Source: Vicinamibacterales bacterium (GTDB taxonomy: Bacteria; Acidobacteriota; Vicinamibacteria; Vicinamibacterales; UBA8438). From it: DNA of 64,000 bases. The stretch is taken from assembly GCA_965247955.1 (NCBI GenBank), contig OZ252042.1, positions 2,266,559 to 2,330,558 of the forward strand, read 5' to 3'. Made by a program: the position numbers and the translations under genes. Shown here in pieces: positions 1,540 through 33,034 of the stretch (within the stretch, counting starts at the first letter, position 1; every line of letters starts with the position of its first letter). A model generated the notes under the pieces. The model had not been told where the DNA came from and searched no databases. It worked only from the letters and a program-made list of their open reading frames with translations.

Positions 1540-2418
1540 TCAGTTGGTCGTGTGATAGTTCATTTCGCCAGCCTCAATTCGCACGCGGAGCCGGTTTTCT
1601 AGCGGCGGAAGTGGGCACGTTGTGTAAGGGTTAAACGCGCACGGCGGATTGTACGCTTGGTTGAAGTCGAGCGTGGTCCAGCCGTCTTCTGGGGCGTTTG
1701 CATAGAGGAAACGCGCGGCCGGGTAAGTTTCAAAACCGCTCGTCAAATCCCGAAAGATAAACCACAAGCGATTGCCTCTGTCTACGGGTCGCATCGTGAT
1801 TTCCTTTCCGCTCAGGGTAAGGGTGATGGTCCCCGAGCTTACGAAGGGTTCGAGGTCTCCAAGGATGTTCGGAAACTGGAATGTGACTGGTTCATGCGGC
1901 ACGAAACGGGCGCGGACACGATAAGCGTCATCCACCGGGAACCACCGGCGCCGTGTGAAGTTTCGACGAATGGGGCTATTCTTGTCGCTCACCCGTATCG
2001 CCAGTCGCTCGCCGCTGTAGTGCACCCACATCGATAAGTCACCAATCGTAATGGTGGCTCGCCGCTCACGCGGATAGAGTGACGCCTGCTTCATCGTCTC
2101 ACCGTTGATAGTCAGGGTTTGACCGGATACTGCGTGAACGCTTACCTTCCGGTTTCGTAGCTCGAACACTCCTGCTTCATCAGGCCCCCTGGGTAAGACC
2201 AGGTCGTTGACGGGAGAGGCACCAAAGGTATTTGTTCCCTCGGTCAGGAAGTAGAGTGCTGCCATCGTCAACCAGCCGGTGTCGGCTTTGAGGAGTTCCT
2301 CGCGTTCGGCACGCCAAGCACTAATCTCGGTCTTGTAGTCAGTCTGGATGACACCGGTGATGACCGTTGCACCAAGTATCAGGACGACGAATAACACCAC
2401 GGCGATGAGACGTTTCAC
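1540..2418 (-). CDS. DUF1684 domain-containing protein (N-terminal membrane anchor)
   Basis: 292-aa ORF with a hydrophobic N-terminus. The C-terminal part (...FETYPAARFLYA...FNQAYNPPCAFNPYTTCPLPPLENRL...) resembles the DUF1684 family. Confidence 0.65.
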   Translation of the reverse strand: MKRLIAVVLFVVLILGATVITGVIQTDYKTEISAWRAEREELLKADTGWLTMAALYFLTEGTNTFGASPVNDLVLPRGPDEAGVFELRNRKVSVHAVSGQTLTINGETMKQASLYPRERRATITIGDLSMWVHYSGERLAIRVSDKNSPIRRNFTRRRWFPVDDAYRVRARFVPHEPVTFQFPNILGDLEPFVSSGTITLTLSGKEITMRPVDRGNRLWFIFRDLTSGFETYPAARFLYANAPEDGWTTLDFNQAYNPPCAFNPYTTCPLPPLENRLRVRIEAGEMNYHTTN

Positions 2419-2512
2419 CTCACACCTCTTTTCGGGTTGGAGTAGCCTCAGAATAGTTAATCTTGGAACAGAACACTAGGGGTTTGGGGTGGTTTCGTAA
2501 CTCTTGGAGGTA

Positions 2513-3385
2513 TTAGCTTCCTTGCAATCCCTTCAGGATAGCCAGGTTCTTTAGATCCATGGGGTCCGCCGTAATGTCCGACGGACGAAAGCCACCGGCC
2601 TTTGGCGTTTCGAGTAGCATCGGCAGCGCCGCGAACCGCTCATCTTTCAGCAAGCGACGAAACGGCTCCGTGCCGATACAGCCTTGCCCGATGTGGTCGT
2701 GCCGATCTACTCGACTTCCAAGTGGTTTCTTCGAGTCGTTGAGGTGAAATACTTTGAGACGGTTCAAGCCGATCACATCCTCAAACTCCTCGAAGATCTT
2801 GGCATAGCCTTCGTTCGAGATGATGTCGTAGCCCGCTGCGACGAGGTGGCAAGTGTCGAGACAGATCCCAACAAGAGATGGGTTGTCAATTTGATCGATC
2901 AGCGTTCGAAGCTGTTCAAATCGGTGACCTAGCATTGTTCCCTGTCCAGCCGTGTGCTCCAACAGTAGGAGGGTCGAGCTGGATTCTTGAGCCTGTGCCT
3001 CCATTATTCCTTCGGAGATTCGCTTGAGCCCCTGCTCAGCGGTGCTTGTCGTATACGCACCTGGGTGCAAAACGACTCCCATTAGGCCGAGCAGATCACC
3101 TCGTTTCAACTCCTCAGCCAGAGCAGCGATGGACCGTCGACGCAAGATAGGGTCAGGCGTAGCGAGATTGATAAGGTAACTGGTGTGCGCAACAATCGGA
3201 TCGATTCCGCTCGCGGCGGCACGTGCACGGAACGCCTCTACTTCAGCATCGTCCAGTGGCCTGGCGCGCCACTGGTTAGAGTTTTTCGTAAAGATCTGAA
3301 GAGCTTCGCACCCGGTGTTTTCGGCGCGGTCGATGGCGCGGGATACACCACCAGCGATTGATGCGTGTACACCTAACCGTGGCAT
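2513..3385 (-). CDS. nfo: deoxyribonuclease IV (endonuclease IV)
   Basis: ORF 2513..3439. LGVHASIAGG...ALQIFTKNSNQW...HTSYLINL...HLNDSK are Nfo/AP endonuclease family 2 hallmarks. The likely start is MPRLGVH at 3385. Confidence 0.85.
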   Translation of the reverse strand: MPRLGVHASIAGGVSRAIDRAENTGCEALQIFTKNSNQWRARPLDDAEVEAFRARAAASGIDPIVAHTSYLINLATPDPILRRRSIAALAEELKRGDLLGLMGVVLHPGAYTTSTAEQGLKRISEGIMEAQAQESSSTLLLLEHTAGQGTMLGHRFEQLRTLIDQIDNPSLVGICLDTCHLVAAGYDIISNEGYAKIFEEFEDVIGLNRLKVFHLNDSKKPLGSRVDRHDHIGQGCIGTEPFRRLLKDERFAALPMLLETPKAGGFRPSDITADPMDLKNLAILKGLQGS

Positions 3386-3676
3386 GGGAGGATTATCAGG
3401 TCTTGGTAGAAGTCTTGCTTCATTTGGAGGGCGATGCACCCCGCTTAGGATTTCACTAAGCTTTGCATGAGTGGCCTTCAGTATTTCAGATATTTTCGGT
3501 CATCGCATCTTGCCCAGACCTGGCGCGGCTCTTGCCGAGCGGTGTCTCGGTGAAACACTAGATTCTTACTACGGGCTGCTAGGACTTGCTTCCGTGAACG
3601 CTGGTGGAGAATCATGTAGGGTTCAGTGTAGAGGTTTTCGCATTCTTAGTCGTCTGAAACTATCACTGAAGGGCAA

Positions 3677-7485: not shown

Positions 7486-8478
7486 TTAACAGAGGCTTTC
7501 CTTGTGAGTTTTTGGGACATTACTGACGAGGTACTCAAAGATTTCACCCCGTGCACACGCGTTGGAGTTGATGGCCCGCCTTGCTCGCACCTTATACGTT
7601 TTTAGACCAACCGCAGCGGCTTCACGGTTTCCGTCGTACAGGTCAGCGATTTCCGGTGCGATTGAGTTACTCAGAACAACCCAACAGCCACGTCGAGCCA
7701 ACGCAATCACTACGGTCTGAAGGCGTCGCTGGTCAGCCATCGAGAAGCCAGCGGCTGTGTACGACGTGAACATGGCCGTACGGCTGATTGGTGCGTAAGG
7801 CGGATCGAAGTACAAGAAGTCTCCAGCTTGTGCTCGGTCGAGCACCGACTCGAACCCGGCCTGATAGACGTCAGCACGTGCAGCCGTCAGCGCCCGCGCC
7901 ACCAGCCTGAGATTGTTCCGGTTACAGATGAGAGGATTGGTATAGCGACCGATTGGCACGTTGAATAGTCCCTGGGAGTTGAGCCGGAACAAGCCGTTGA
8001 ATCCAGTCCGGTTTAGGTAGATCAGTTTTGCTGCCAGTGCGGGTGTGTACTGGATACTCTGAGATTCTATGCCGTTGGAGATGCGTTGGCGTTGAGGATT
8101 AAATTGTTCGTCTCTGACCCGGTAGTAGTGTTTCTTCGGATTGTGTCTTGATCCAGCGGCCAGTTGTGCCAGATGACGGATGACCGATTCGACTTTGTCA
8201 CGAACCATCAGGTAACAGCCAACTAAGTCAGCATTGTTATCGATCAACGCTGTTCTACAGTTAGCGATCAGTCTACGGTTGTGAAGATCGAAGAAAACTG
8301 CACCACTTCCTATAAACGGCTCATAGTACGTCCCGAAAGTCTTCGGATAGAACTCCCTGATCTGTGGAAGAAGTTGACGTTTACCTCCGGCCCATTTCAA
8401 GAAGGGGCGGACGGGTTTCTTTAGTGGAGGAGCCTCGGACGACTCAGGAAACTGAACCACTGTGTTCTGATGTTCCAT
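7486..8478 (-). CDS. Dam-family site-specific DNA adenine (N6) methyltransferase, solitary
   Basis: FLKWAGGKRQLLPQI (SAM-binding region), NRTGFNGLFRLN and the catalytic FDPPY motif. No nuclease ORF lies adjacent. Confidence 0.85.
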   Translation of the reverse strand: MEHQNTVVQFPESSEAPPLKKPVRPFLKWAGGKRQLLPQIREFYPKTFGTYYEPFIGSGAVFFDLHNRRLIANCRTALIDNNADLVGCYLMVRDKVESVIRHLAQLAAGSRHNPKKHYYRVRDEQFNPQRQRISNGIESQSIQYTPALAAKLIYLNRTGFNGLFRLNSQGLFNVPIGRYTNPLICNRNNLRLVARALTAARADVYQAGFESVLDRAQAGDFLYFDPPYAPISRTAMFTSYTAAGFSMADQRRLQTVVIALARRGCWVVLSNSIAPEIADLYDGNREAAAVGLKTYKVRARRAINSNACARGEIFEYLVSNVPKTHKESLC

Positions 8479-29209: not shown

Positions 29210-29883
29210 GTCCCGTGATTGCTATCGATGGACCATCTGGTGCCGGCAAGGGTACGGTCGCCCGAGCGGTGGCTCAAACACTAGAGTGTGTGTACGTAGA
29301 CACCGGGGCCATGTATCGAGCGGTCGCTTGGAAAAGCAAGCACCAAGGGTTTGATCTTGATGACGAAAACGCGATAACCGAGGTTGCAACCCGAGCGGTG
29401 TTTGACTTGAGTACCGCCCGGGTGGTCATCGACGGGCACGACGTTACACAAGCTATCCGAACACCGGAGATGGACGCGGCAGCCGCGACTGTGGCACGGA
29501 TGCCGAAGGTCCGGCAAGCATTGGTCTGGCACCAGCGGGAATACGCTAACAATTTGACCGTCGTTATGGAAGGACGAGACATCGGGACTGTTGTCTTTCC
29601 GAAAGCCGAGGTCAAGATCTACCTTGACGCATTAGCCGAGGAACGCGCTGCCCGGCGTTCGAAAGACCCTGTTCATAGGTGGTCAAAGGGTGCTGACCTC
29701 GCCGAGGTCGCGAGTGCCCTTGAGGCCCGAGACCGGTCTGACCGGACACGTCAAATCTCACCGTTGATGCGCGCGCCTGACGCAGTGTCGATTGATACGA
29801 CTGGGGTGCCAATTGCGGAAGTGGTACGAAGAGTGCTAGAAATTGTCAAAGAAAAACTGAGCAAATCAGAGACTAGTCTTTAA
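29206..29883 (+). CDS. cmk: (d)CMP kinase
   Basis: IAIDGPSGAGKGTVA P-loop and full-length Cmk similarity. It overlaps rluB by 4 nt. Confidence 0.95.
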   Translation: MSPVIAIDGPSGAGKGTVARAVAQTLECVYVDTGAMYRAVAWKSKHQGFDLDDENAITEVATRAVFDLSTARVVIDGHDVTQAIRTPEMDAAAATVARMPKVRQALVWHQREYANNLTVVMEGRDIGTVVFPKAEVKIYLDALAEERAARRSKDPVHRWSKGADLAEVASALEARDRSDRTRQISPLMRAPDAVSIDTTGVPIAEVVRRVLEIVKEKLSKSETSL

Positions 29884-29915: not shown

Positions 29916-29923
29916 AAAAATTA
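29916..29923. repeat. target-site duplication, left copy (AAAAATTA)
   Basis: An identical 8-mer abuts the other element end at 32449..32456. Confidence 0.85.
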
Positions 29924-29947
29924 GGGACCTACCTACTTGACGATCCT
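29924..29947. repeat. terminal inverted repeat (distal to transposase)
   Basis: GGGACCTACCTACTTGACGATCCT is the exact reverse complement of 32425..32448. Confidence 0.9.
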
Positions 29948-30137
29948 AGTAGCAGTAATTCTTTCGCCATCTGTCGGCAATCTCAGTTCTGACTTCCGTA
30001 TAGAGAGTTGGCTCGCGCGTGATATCGGCAATGATCCATCGACCATCGACCATTCTATACAGGCGTTCTGTTAATTCGGGATCTGTCGGCACAAACACCT
30101 TAGATACCGATGAAGGATCGAACGGTGCGTTGCTCAC
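29946..30137 (-). CDS. hypothetical 63-aa protein (passenger ORF; uncertain)
   Basis: GTG start 4 nt after the nuclease stop. The stop codon lies inside the terminal inverted repeat. I recognise no RBS and no family. Confidence 0.3.
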   Translation of the reverse strand: MSNAPFDPSSVSKVFVPTDPELTERLYRMVDGRWIIADITREPTLYTEVRTEIADRWRKNYCY

Positions 30138-30140
30138 TGT

Positions 30141-30593
30141 TTACAACCGACCGTGACTTACAAACCGAGCGAACTCCCCTTGCGTGAACACGTGGAGTAG
30201 TCGGTTCTTTCCGGCCTGGTTGGTCAGCCACTGCTTTGCGCCAGCGGAGTAGCCGTCCCCGTCAAGAATGATGATGGTGTCAAACTGATTCTGTGAGATC
30301 GACAGAACCTCGAACGGGTACTTCTCTTCAACGCTCCCACCTGATGCCTGCCACTTACACTGAATCACCAAACACTCAGGGTAGAGGCGTGGGTGGTAGA
30401 GAATGGCATCCACGCGCCGTTTCTTGCCGTAGATGTCTTTTCCGATCTCGCACTGGCGCGTGTAGATGGGCTGTTCCAGCTCCCGAGCTGGAAAGAACCG
30501 AACGGGCGGCACCAACAGGTACTCACGTTCGTTCAGCACGTCCGCCACGAAGTCTTCCAGCCGGCGACCAGATCGGTTTGCGCCAGTGGCCAT
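30141..30593 (-). CDS. putative small PD-(D/E)xK-type restriction endonuclease
   Basis: 150-aa ORF. Its ATG overlaps the MTase stop by 1 nt (TAATG). The core RRVDAILYHP-x9-LVIQCKWQ...GSVEEK looks like a D-x(n)-(E/Q)xK nuclease. The position immediately downstream of an MTase fits a Type II R-M pair. Confidence 0.55.
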   Translation of the reverse strand: MATGANRSGRRLEDFVADVLNEREYLLVPPVRFFPARELEQPIYTRQCEIGKDIYGKKRRVDAILYHPRLYPECLVIQCKWQASGGSVEEKYPFEVLSISQNQFDTIIILDGDGYSAGAKQWLTNQAGKNRLLHVFTQGEFARFVSHGRL

Positions 30594-31462
30594 TACCCGA
30601 CAATCAACAGTTGGGGTCCCTTGCCGCGCCCATTCCCATCGCTATTGATGCTACGCGGAGCAGAGACCGTGTGACGGGTGAAGTCTCGATACAGACGCTT
30701 GATGCTCTCCGTATCGCTATTAGACACGATGACGTGTGCTCCAGCCTTGCGCCACTGTCGACAGGAATCACGAAGGGCCTTTTGATCGTCGGCGTCAAAG
30801 CCTTCCCCAGTGTAGCCGGTGAATGTCCCAGCATAGGGTGGGTCACAGTACACGAGGTCGCCGGCCTTTGGTTCGATGCGGTCAAATGACTTGGCCGTGA
30901 ACGTGGCCTTGGCCAGCACGTCTGACACCGCCCGTAGGTTCTCAATATCACAAATCGTCGGGTTTGTATGTCGCCCAATCGGAACGTTGAACCGTCCGTG
31001 CTTGTTGACTCGATAGAGCCCGTTGAAGCACGTCTTGTTGAGATAGATGAACCGCGCGGCGAGCAGAACTGGGTCTTGTTCATCGTGCATCTTGTTGCGG
31101 ACATATAGGTAATGGCGACGGTTGTGCTTCCGTTTGTGCGCCTGCAACGCCTCAATAACTGCATCTGTCCGTGCGTGAATCATCCGATAGGCGATGATTA
31201 GCTCAAGGTTCACGTCTGACAGATGCGCTTTGCGAATGCGGCTGTCGAGCGCAAAGAACACCGCCCCGCCCCCAAGGAACGGCTCCCAATAATCTCCGAA
31301 CTTCTCTGGCAGAACCTTGATGATCTCAGGGATGAGGGACCGCTTTCCTCCCGCCCACTTCACGAACGGGTACGCCCTGGGCCGGTCAAGATACTCAACA
31401 GTCGTGTGTTTAAGAACCTTATTGAAGGCAGAAAGCGGGTCAGTCTTGGGTGCTGCCTTCAT
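30593..31462 (-). CDS. Dam-family site-specific DNA adenine (N6) methyltransferase (IS-borne)
   Basis: FVKWAGGKRSLIPEI, NKTCFNGLYRVN and the catalytic CDPPYAGTF motif. Its ATG overlaps the transposase stop (ATGA). Confidence 0.9.
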   Translation of the reverse strand: MKAAPKTDPLSAFNKVLKHTTVEYLDRPRAYPFVKWAGGKRSLIPEIIKVLPEKFGDYWEPFLGGGAVFFALDSRIRKAHLSDVNLELIIAYRMIHARTDAVIEALQAHKRKHNRRHYLYVRNKMHDEQDPVLLAARFIYLNKTCFNGLYRVNKHGRFNVPIGRHTNPTICDIENLRAVSDVLAKATFTAKSFDRIEPKAGDLVYCDPPYAGTFTGYTGEGFDADDQKALRDSCRQWRKAGAHVIVSNSDTESIKRLYRDFTRHTVSAPRSINSDGNGRGKGPQLLIVG

Positions 31463-32401
31463 GCGATGAGGTCCTTATAGCTCAGCCGTGCATCGTTTGT
31501 CAGGCCACGACCGAGCGCATCGTTAACGGTTTCTTTCTTACCGTTCAGCCGTCTGTTTTGCCGGTAGCACACGGCATTGAGGTAGAGCTGGGTGTGCTTC
31601 CGACTCCACCAGTGGTGCGTCCCAACGTAGACCCGTTTAGTCATGGCCCACACGCTCTCGATACTGTTAGTATGCGTATTCCCTCTCACATATTCACCAG
31701 CCGAGTGATTCACGCGGTCTACCGCATAGAACCCGTCTAGTGCCCCGTACGCCCTGTTGTCATCGGCGTGCACCTGGCGACCCCAGCGCCACGTACTGAA
31801 TCATCAGGGGGGTGATGTCTTTCCCCTTGGTGGACCGGACCTGAAACGCGCGGGTATCACCGCCCCGCTCCCGTATGCCGAAGGCAACCGTCTTGGTCTT
31901 TGTGCTCCGTCCTTGCGTTCCAGTCGTTCGCTTCCAGGCGTGCTTGTTTCGTTCCTTTCCACCGATGTAGGTCTCATCAACCTCGACCTGCCCGCCGAGC
32001 ATCCCGTTCGTGCCGCCTTTCGCCACGGCGTTGCGAATGCGCTGGAGCATGAACCAGGCAGTCTGTTGTGTCACGCCTAGATGCTTGGCTAACTGAGTTG
32101 AAGCGATGCCCTTGGAGTGTGTAGTTTCCAGGTAGATGGCTAGGAACCACTTAGGAAGTAGCTTGATTGGGCTGTCCCCAAAGATGGTGCCAGTAATGAG
32201 ACGAAACACGCGCTTGCAGTCGGAGCACCGGTGGCGCTGCCCATCGGCGTAATGGTAGATCTTCCCCAGGCTCCCGCAGCGTGAGCAATACGGGCCATCC
32301 TTCCACCGGATAGTCTCAAGGTGGGACAGACACGCTCGAACGGTTCCGAAGGTTCGTGTAAACTCAGGTAGAGTTATGGCTGTTTCTCTCAATCTCAACA
32401 A
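31459..32401 (-). pseudogene. IS1595-family (ISXO2-like) DDE transposase, interrupted by a 1-nt frameshift near 31760..31775
   Basis: Two ORFs, 31760..32401 and 31459..31773. The N-terminal part carries the zinc ribbon (RWKDGPYCSRCGS...HRCSDCKRVF) and VEVDETYIGG. The C-terminal part carries HADDNRAY and NSIESVWAMTKR. Removing one C in TCGCCAGGTG restores ...ALGSQVHADDNRAY. Confidence 0.85.
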
Positions 32402-32406
32402 CAGCC

Positions 32407-32435
32407 ATTATACAGAACTGATCGAGGATCGTCAA
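32407..32435 (-). promoter_or_regulatory. candidate sigma70-type promoter partly inside the IR, reading into the transposase
   Basis: On the minus strand, TTGACG (32435..32430) is followed by a 17-nt spacer and TATAAT (32412..32407). Confidence 0.45.
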
Positions 32436-32448
32436 GTAGGTAGGTCCC
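32425..32448. repeat. terminal inverted repeat (transposase-proximal)
   Basis: AGGATCGTCAAGTAGGTAGGTCCC is the exact reverse complement of 29924..29947. Confidence 0.9.
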
Positions 32449-32456
32449 AAAAATTA
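32449..32456. repeat. target-site duplication, right copy (AAAAATTA)
   Basis: Identical to 29916..29923. An 8-bp duplication is the size reported for the IS1595 family. Confidence 0.85.
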
Positions 32457-32479: not shown

Positions 32480-33034
32480 TTAGCGTTCTTCGTTTTCCTT
32501 GTCGTTCTCGAAACTAACCCGCTCAATTAAATCATCCAGTCGATTCTCGAGCTTAACGGTCCGCCCGCTGTCCACATCGCTAGCGATAACTGGCTCGCCT
32601 TGGTTGGGGGTGACCGTCGTTGACGGGATTGCTACCGTAACCACCACTGGCTGGGTCGTTGCTTCGGGTAGGATACGTCGCGGTCGCTCCAGACTGGCTG
32701 GTTTCGGACGACTCCTACGCGTGGTGCTTGCAGGCCGGCGCCGCTTGGCTGTTGATTTTTGCTTCGACGTCGTCTTGCGAGCGGTCTTTTTCTTCGCTGA
32801 CTTAGCCGTTCTCTTGGCGGTTTTCTTCAAACCGCCATTTTTCTTAGCCCGTGGTTTGGCCATGAGCCGCGCCGAGCGGGCTCGCGCCGTCTTTCGGCGA
32901 TGTTTGATCTTACGCGGGGTTTTGGAGGCCCGTTTCTTAGCTGCGATGGGACGAGCCGAGCGCGTACGAGTCGTGTTCTTAGTCTTAATCTTTCTTGAGG
33001 ATTTGGCTCTGGATTTCCGCTTGGACTTCGCCAT
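32480..33034 (-). CDS. highly basic Lys/Arg/Ala/Thr-rich protein (histone H1-like low-complexity N-terminal region, acidic C-terminus)
   Basis: 184-aa ORF. About 110 aa consist of KKxAK/RxxAR-type repeats, followed by a Pro/Thr linker and a C-terminal ...RLDDLIERVSFENDKENEER. It is divergent from rpsA. Confidence 0.55.
   Translation of the reverse strand: MAKSKRKSRAKSSRKIKTKNTTRTRSARPIAAKKRASKTPRKIKHRRKTARARSARLMAKPRAKKNGGLKKTAKRTAKSAKKKTARKTTSKQKSTAKRRRPASTTRRSRPKPASLERPRRILPEATTQPVVVTVAIPSTTVTPNQGEPVIASDVDSGRTVKLENRLDDLIERVSFENDKENEER

Follow-up and report, generated by a model that had tools for sequence, protein, structure and literature searches.

The 64,000-nucleotide window analyzed here, from a Vicinamibacterales bacterium (assembly GCA_965247955.1, contig OZ252042.1, positions 2,266,559 to 2,330,558 of the forward strand), holds between cmk and a gene for a basic protein a 2,525-bp unit that is very probably an IS1595-family transporter insertion sequence (tIS), in which a DDE transposase gene, a gene for a DpnM/Dam-like N6-methyladenine (m6A) DNA methyltransferase and a gene for a 150-aa PD-(D/E)xK nuclease, the latter two a putative Type II restriction-modification (R-M) system, lie inside one pair of terminal inverted repeats. 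The transposase-distal repeat (IRR; 29924-29947, minus strand) reads GGGACCTACCTACTTGACGATCCT on the forward strand, and its exact reverse complement forms the transposase-adjacent repeat (IRL; 32425-32448, minus strand), the two arms matching at 24/24 positions. Both arms are directly flanked by AAAAATTA (29916-29923 and 32449-32456), an exact 8-bp target-site duplication. No third copy of the 24-bp repeat occurs in the window at three or fewer mismatches, and 0/100 dinucleotide-preserving shuffles gave a match. The original prediction had described perfect 24-bp inverted repeats and identical 8-bp direct repeats around a unit of this length, and all were re-found at exactly those positions. 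The transposase, methylase and nuclease genes, together with a 63-aa open reading frame (ORF), are all on the minus strand of the window; the methylase start codon overlaps the transposase stop codon (ATGA), and the nuclease start codon overlaps the methylase stop codon (TAATG). With one transposase gene, repeats at both ends of the unit and no second insertion sequence (IS) copy in the window, the unit has the layout of a tIS, and a composite transposon was rejected on the grounds of the single transposase gene and the lack of a second copy in the window. The G+C content of the element is not visibly different from that of its flanks.

The same unit recurs at other loci with both ends preserved. 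The exact window methylase protein is encoded on other contigs too, and two copies of 2,524 bp (L001 and L002, with 98.4% and 99.6% identity to that of the window) lie in unrelated gene neighborhoods, both with the two repeats and with exact 8-bp duplications of their own, TTACTAGA in L001 and CTCCGTAA in L002. Further sites were found on the Vicinamibacterales metagenome-assembled genome (MAG) chromosomes OZ244656.1 and OZ252241.1, with the duplications TTAAATTG (L005) and TTTGTTTT (L006). There are thus five independent insertion sites including that of the window, at which a near-identical element (96-99.6%) is bounded each time by a different perfect 8-bp duplication; the four other sites, which keep the repeats and carry their own duplications, bear out the earlier expectation of further copies with different flanks. 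One Nitrosomonadaceae chromosome contains two copies that differ at 4 of 2,327 aligned columns and have different duplications, a near-identical pair that therefore implies recent movement within that genome.

Exact-sequence look-ups of the window's cmk and rpsA genes, and of a second methylase gene in the window described below, returned no match, and the empty sites were reached via cmk homologues, the closest of which (95%, 90% and 85% identical) are on contigs L086, L085 and L089. The gene order on all three is pseudouridine synthase, cmk, basic protein (on the opposite strand) and rpsA, and the cmk/basic-protein spacer is uninterrupted, at 78 bp in L085 and L086 and ~20 bp in L089. In the L086 spacer, GTTTGAAACACTTAAGACT, one 8-bp stretch, AACACTTA, stands at the place that two copies of AAAAATTA occupy in the window, in the order GTTTG-AAAAATTA-element-AAAAATTA-AGACT. 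Insertion into the cmk/basic-protein spacer is documented because the unoccupied site exists in these relatives. The empty site anticipated in related genomes was thereby found in L085, L086 and L089, and the arrangement that would have spoken against the prediction, a methylase and a nuclease gene at the cmk locus of relatives without the transposase and the repeats, was not seen in these three contigs, whose spacers are empty. Misassembly is argued against because independent assemblies give the same element, and both misassembly and a chance repeat were rejected in view of the repeats and fresh duplications at five unrelated loci. We conclude that the 2.5-kb unit moves in its entirety by transposition, into 8-bp targets rich in A+T.

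A transposase-profile scan across one genome per species returned 80 loci, most of which yielded ends of the GGGAATTATATACTTGACGATCC type flanked by an exact AT-rich duplication of 8 bp; 24-bp repeats with exact 8-bp duplications were seen in the window, L001, L002, L005, L006 and about 40 relatives. At 20 fetched loci, homologues of the methylase (51-98% identity) and the nuclease (56-99%) lie directly downstream of the transposase, which is mostly 59-98% identical to the query, and the nuclease gene is retained in 20/20 loci that carry the methylase. The MAGs that host this trio belong to Acidobacteriota (Vicinamibacterales, Marinacidobacterales), Pseudomonadota (Alpha- and Gammaproteobacteria, Paracoccaceae, Nitrosomonadaceae, Poriferihabitaceae) and Chloroflexota (Dehalococcoidia, Phototrophicaceae, Caldilineaceae). 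The three proteins co-diverge, their pairwise identities being correlated (Mantel r 0.74-0.89, with 0/2,000 permutations reaching the observed value), from which we infer that the trio evolved as a unit. The five sites, the empty sites and the conserved trio together uphold the central claim of the original prediction, that an IS1595-family element moves with a methylase-nuclease pair as internal cargo.

The first cargo gene (30593-31462, minus strand) encodes a 289-aa protein of the D12/Dam family of N6-adenine DNA methyltransferases (PF02086, E 2e-60; TIGR00571, 272 bits against a cut-off of 115), with the motifs EPFLGGGAVFF (S-adenosylmethionine binding) and CDPPY (the catalytic DPPY), and PADLOC classes it as a Type II methylase. 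The proteins of solved structure that match it best, DpnM (E 9e-56), E. coli Dam and T4 Dam, are all GATC enzymes. In the alignment with E. coli Dam, K9, N120, L122, R124, P134 and R137 of that enzyme, which have roles in GATC contact in published Dam structures, are conserved. Because it scores 156 against the E. coli Dam equivalog model, below the cut-off of 441, it is not an orthologue of that enzyme; it is a DpnM/Dam-like methylase with probable GATC specificity. The window also encodes, at 7486-8478 on the minus strand, a second DpnM/Dam-like methyltransferase of 330 aa that is 39% identical to the IS-borne one and has DpnM as its best solved relative (E 4e-58); no nuclease-like gene was found beside it, and it appears to be solitary.

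The second cargo gene (30141-30593, minus strand) encodes the 150-aa nuclease, a putative restriction endonuclease that matches PF20472 (PDDEXK_11) with an E value of 2.7e-27. Its AlphaFold model, confident at a mean predicted local distance difference test score (pLDDT) of 89.9, gives a predicted PD-(D/E)xK fold of an uncharacterized family (PF20472), and a Protein Data Bank (PDB) sequence search returned no match. We found 233 members of the family, all ~150 aa among the matches listed, and across 42 of them (58-87% identity) the residues E12, D61, Q77-x-K79 and E94 are invariant and constitute putative catalytic residues. The DpnII profile is weakly matched by 25/42 of these members (best E 2e-6) and the Mrr catalytic profile by 28/42. 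The 150-aa PF20472 family is a candidate minimal restriction enzyme.

The transposase carries the domains PF12760 (Zn_ribbon_IS1595) and PF12762 (DDE_Tnp_IS1595), is of the IS1595/ISXO2 type (NCBIfam NF033547, 95 bits against a cut-off of 75) and, in the family alignment, has D134, D205 and N237 invariant and E240 and K247 near-invariant. No close named relative was available to fix its subgroup: the closest transposase in a PLSDB plasmid search was at most 44% identical, with no named ISfinder element, and the element ends GGnAATTATATAC resemble those of the ISNwi1 subgroup of IS1595. An intact 305-aa transposase ORF is encoded in L001, L002 and L005. The uninterrupted transposase expected of an IS1595-family element is missing from the window copy, where the gene is split into ORFs of 213 and 104 aa by one extra base at 31777 (minus strand; GG on the plus strand where intact copies have G, from alignment with L001 and L002) that falls inside the DDE domain. 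The N-terminal fragment (31760-32377, minus strand) holds the Zn ribbon and the first half of the DDE domain, and the C-terminal fragment (31459-31773, minus strand) the second half (PF12762 profile positions 81-153). At 32377-32375 the same alignment reveals ATA in place of the ATG with which the gene originally started. With these two lesions the window copy is a non-autonomous derivative with a dead transposase, and because of them it is unable to move alone and is now fixed in place; any further movement would require a transposase provided in trans. Relative to L001, the window copy has accumulated 7 synonymous and 5 non-synonymous codon changes in the transposase, 8 and 0 in the methylase, and 4 and 1 in the nuclease. 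The ratios of 8:0 and 4:1 point to purifying selection on methylase and nuclease, and the transposase appears less constrained than these cargo genes.

The history shown by these observations is that the element inserted into a 78-bp spacer between cmk and the basic-protein gene and that the window copy then lost its transposase through the ATG to ATA change and the 1-base frameshift, while the methylase and nuclease genes stayed intact. The three genes would form one operon transcribed from a promoter with its -35 hexamer in the left repeat, because their start and stop codons overlap and only one sigma-70-like promoter is present; the ATGA and TAATG overlaps suggest translational coupling. 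The cargo would be a Type II R-M system, probably GATC-specific, and may help the element persist after its mobility has decayed, either by defense or by post-segregational killing. A second case of decay is found in three genomes at a shared locus (L091-L093), where a transposase split into 227 + 61 aa, a degenerate left repeat and a deletion of the right repeat and the tail just past the nuclease stop codon accompany methylase and nuclease genes of full length. Cargo outliving its vehicle fits both the window and L091-L093, and a defense benefit and post-segregational killing are equally compatible with it.

Several observations weigh against this account. The frameshift at 31777 might be an assembly error, in which case the change of the start codon would stand as a second, independent lesion. 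GATC, as a proxy for specificity, is not avoided in the host window (observed/expected 0.94). The second methylase at 7486-8478, if of the same specificity, would already protect the host, so that the addiction that the original prediction proposed for the IS-borne pair could be weakened or even ineffective. The methylase ORF is ~30 aa short (261-269 aa) in L011, L014, L017, L020 and L022. On the side of the nuclease, no PADLOC restriction-enzyme model matches it, the window protein scores 16 bits against DpnII (PF04556), below the gathering threshold of 23 and thus outside that family, and the Foldseek matches to its model are weak (template modeling (TM) score 0.41 or less), if all to PD-(D/E)xK proteins (BstEII, NucS and MspJI). 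A Type II R-M pair for which GATC specificity is probable is nonetheless the best reading of the cargo, whose activity and specificity are predicted.

The short methylase ORFs bear on the possibility that the module is decayed or never restricts, with the methylase effectively solitary, in an epigenetic or anti-restriction role, and the nuclease inactive or put to an unrelated function. A short methylase beside an intact nuclease gene would be lethal if the nuclease were active and cognate, the nuclease family is uncharacterized, and solitary methylases have been reported as IS passengers (PMC2853133, citing the IS1595 paper). We consider a non-restricting module unlikely, as the purifying selection on the nuclease (4 synonymous changes to 1 non-synonymous), the invariance of its putative catalytic residues in 42 members and its retention in every one of the 20 methylase-carrying loci speak against it.

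That the nuclease might instead serve transposition itself, as a TnsA-like accessory (as in Tn7) that cuts the second strand and so lets the DDE transposase excise the element, with the methylase in a purely regulatory role, is suggested by the presence of a small PD-(D/E)xK protein beside a DDE transposase with which it co-diverges, and by the failure of the nuclease to match any curated restriction-enzyme model. The nuclease is, however, always paired with a Dam-family methylase, in methylase-then-nuclease order with overlapping codons, and its family shows weak matches to the catalytic cores of DpnII and Mrr. In one Latescibacteria genome (OY282377.1), cargo-less relatives of 1.24-1.28 kb have reached at least 13 copies without any such nuclease, and the methylase and nuclease genes remain intact where the transposase and one end have been lost, which would be senseless for a transposition factor. 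This makes an accessory role very improbable. The last alternative, an IS1595 element that came to lie beside a resident R-M pair with a fortuitous far repeat, or an assembly chimera, has only the prior plausibility that R-M genes often lie near unrelated transposases, and it is already refuted, its chance close to nil, by the recurrence, in independent assemblies, of the 2,524-bp unit at five unrelated loci, each time with both repeats and a new 8-bp duplication, and by empty sites in relatives that are devoid of methylase, nuclease and transposase alike.

The sigma-70-like promoter from which the putative Type II R-M operon would be transcribed, TTGACG-17-TATAAT (32435 to 32407, minus strand; 11/12 consensus positions), is the sole promoter-like site in the region, and its -35 hexamer lies inside the left inverted repeat. 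Its spacing recurs in related elements, in which the sequence of the spacer differs. GATC occurs at 32430-32427 and 32423-32420 in the promoter region and at 29942-29945 in the right repeat; across the methylase-carrying clade it is present at repeat positions 19-22 in 37/38 arms, and in the left arm it abuts the -35 hexamer of the operon promoter (TTGAC/GATC). GATC is missing there from about 30 fetched relatives with resolved ends and with other or no cargo, most of which have TTGACA or TTTACAC instead. IS10 and IS50 are Dam-regulated and have GATC in the terminal repeat and the transposase promoter. The window element is like them in having GATC in a terminal repeat and at the transposase promoter; unlike them, with their dependence on host Dam, it would bring its own methylase, and the parallel is by analogy only. 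We tentatively raise the idea, which we think rather doubtful, that the cargo methylase methylates the element's own ends and provides an IS10-like self-methylation switch in hosts without Dam. Were this so, and the methylase GATC-specific, transposase expression, R-M establishment and replication-coupled transposition would be tied to the element's own cargo, and the R-M pair would be part of a transposon control circuit and not a mere passenger. Common descent and binding by the transposase could account equally well for the conserved GATC. In one relative (L012:4911-5000) the promoter -10 region, GCCTATATAAT, stands in triplicate tandem upstream of the transposase.

Between the nuclease gene and the right repeat lies a tail of ~190 bp (29948-30140, minus strand) that holds the 63-aa ORF (30137-29946, minus strand). 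This ORF has no Pfam, NCBIfam or PADLOC match, and a search of 1.84 billion representatives found it in its own lineage only, apart from repeat-like matches in giant proteins. Comparison of the window with L001 gives 3 synonymous and 6 non-synonymous changes in this ORF, and the tail is absent from most related elements, in which the nuclease stop codon lies ~22 bp from the repeat. A conserved gene was rejected at this position on these grounds, that is, no relatives beyond its own lineage, neutral evolution and a mostly absent tail; the 63-aa ORF is probably not a gene and the tail probably non-coding. With respect to gene content, then, the original prediction holds for the methylase and the nuclease, but its transposase is split and its 63-aa ORF is probably spurious.

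Transposases 37-45% identical to that of the window carry other cargo inside their own repeats, including Type IIG-like enzymes (an 838-aa protein with HSDR_N and N6_Mtase domains and a 777-aa protein with N6_Mtase and Methylase_S domains), a fusion of N6_N4 methylase and HNH, RhuM proteins and P63C proteins. Two loci of this group encode a C5 cytosine methylase followed by an unannotated 220-aa protein (L077:3115-5017) and an EcoRI-type methylase followed by a GmrSD_N/HNH protein (L061:6112-8221), and both look like candidate R-M pairs inside IS1595-type repeats. Judged by these fetched relatives, this IS1595 branch is a frequent carrier of small restriction or defense modules.

Several features of the surroundings and of the relatives were recorded alongside these results. 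The neighbor of the element in the window is a Lys/Arg/Ala-rich basic protein of 184 aa (32480-33034, minus strand) with no Pfam or NCBIfam match, whose gene is kept at the same position, in the cmk-rpsA interval, in L085, L086 and L089, where it encodes 194-216 aa. On the other side, relatives end cmk with TAA where the window has TCA (within 29869-29883), which makes the protein 5 aa longer (225 vs 220 aa). At the five loci with the short methylase ORF, a gap of 30-75 bp separates it from a nuclease gene that is intact; two of these loci, L014 and L022, belong to one genome, in which they are near-identical copies. Directly upstream of the decayed element in L091-L093, at about 2050-3405, lie one or two ORFs of 223-225 aa (DDE_Tnp_IS1595) and an IS110-family transposase, a pile-up of mobile elements common to the three genomes. 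The cargo-less Latescibacteria copies (L024-L030) come in lengths of 1258, 1264/1265, 1271 and 1278 bp, 7-bp steps that arise from a repeat, ACAAGTT, present one to four times between the -10 of the promoter and the start of the transposase. In L033 (4914-7347) this same Latescibacteria IS holds two opposite-strand ORFs that, judged by eye, resemble an IS630-type transposase pair, an IS nested in an IS.

IS1595 elements with passenger genes are already known, as are transposon-like R-M units with 8-bp duplications. A search of the available literature found no description of this element or of an intact IS1595 element with an R-M pair, the exceptions being the lnu-carrying tIS and the units that Furuta, Abe and Kobayashi reported in 2010 (ISfinder and REBASE lay outside that search). 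The claim that an R-M system travels as the payload of a simple IS therefore stands, with a novelty smaller than the original prediction had it, since both components have been published. What the present element adds is a clean, multiply replicated case of a methylase-nuclease pair inside the simplest kind of transposon, with intact, decaying and empty states all found. The IS1595 branch is in turn one route by which restriction and defense genes spread between phyla.

Among tIS of the IS1595 family, MTnSag1 and tISCpe8 carry passenger genes between repeats of ~25 bp and produce an 8-bp duplication (PMC5704250, citing Siguier, Gagnevin and Chandler 2009). The window element is built like them, with one IS1595-type DDE transposase, passenger genes downstream of it inside the repeats and an 8-bp duplication; their cargo consists of lincosamide-resistance and mobilization genes, whereas that of the window element is a methylase-nuclease pair. 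Compared with DpnII/MboI-type GATC systems, the likeness lies in a methylase nearest to DpnM and in a nuclease family that weakly matches the DpnII catalytic core, and the difference in a nuclease of about half the size (150 aa vs 278 profile positions) and in one methylase against DpnII's two.

The closest precedents are the R-M units that Furuta, Abe and Kobayashi (2010) described within inverted repeats, with 8-bp duplications and with empty sites in relatives (PMC2853133): a Type IIP unit of X. oryzae with 65-bp repeats and a unit of N. gonorrhoeae NCCP11945 with 26-bp repeats, the latter including a degenerate transposase-like gene (COG3677). In those units the transposase is absent or inactive, and the authors, who refer to the IS1595 paper on the association of IS elements with R-M genes and with solitary methylase genes, could not name the mover (PMC2853133). 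The window element shares with these units R-M genes inside inverted repeats, an 8-bp duplication and empty sites, and departs from them in having intact autonomous copies (L001, L002 and L005), multiple insertion sites and a lineage that extends across three phyla; it thereby fills the gap left by that study and names a vehicle for transposon-like R-M units.

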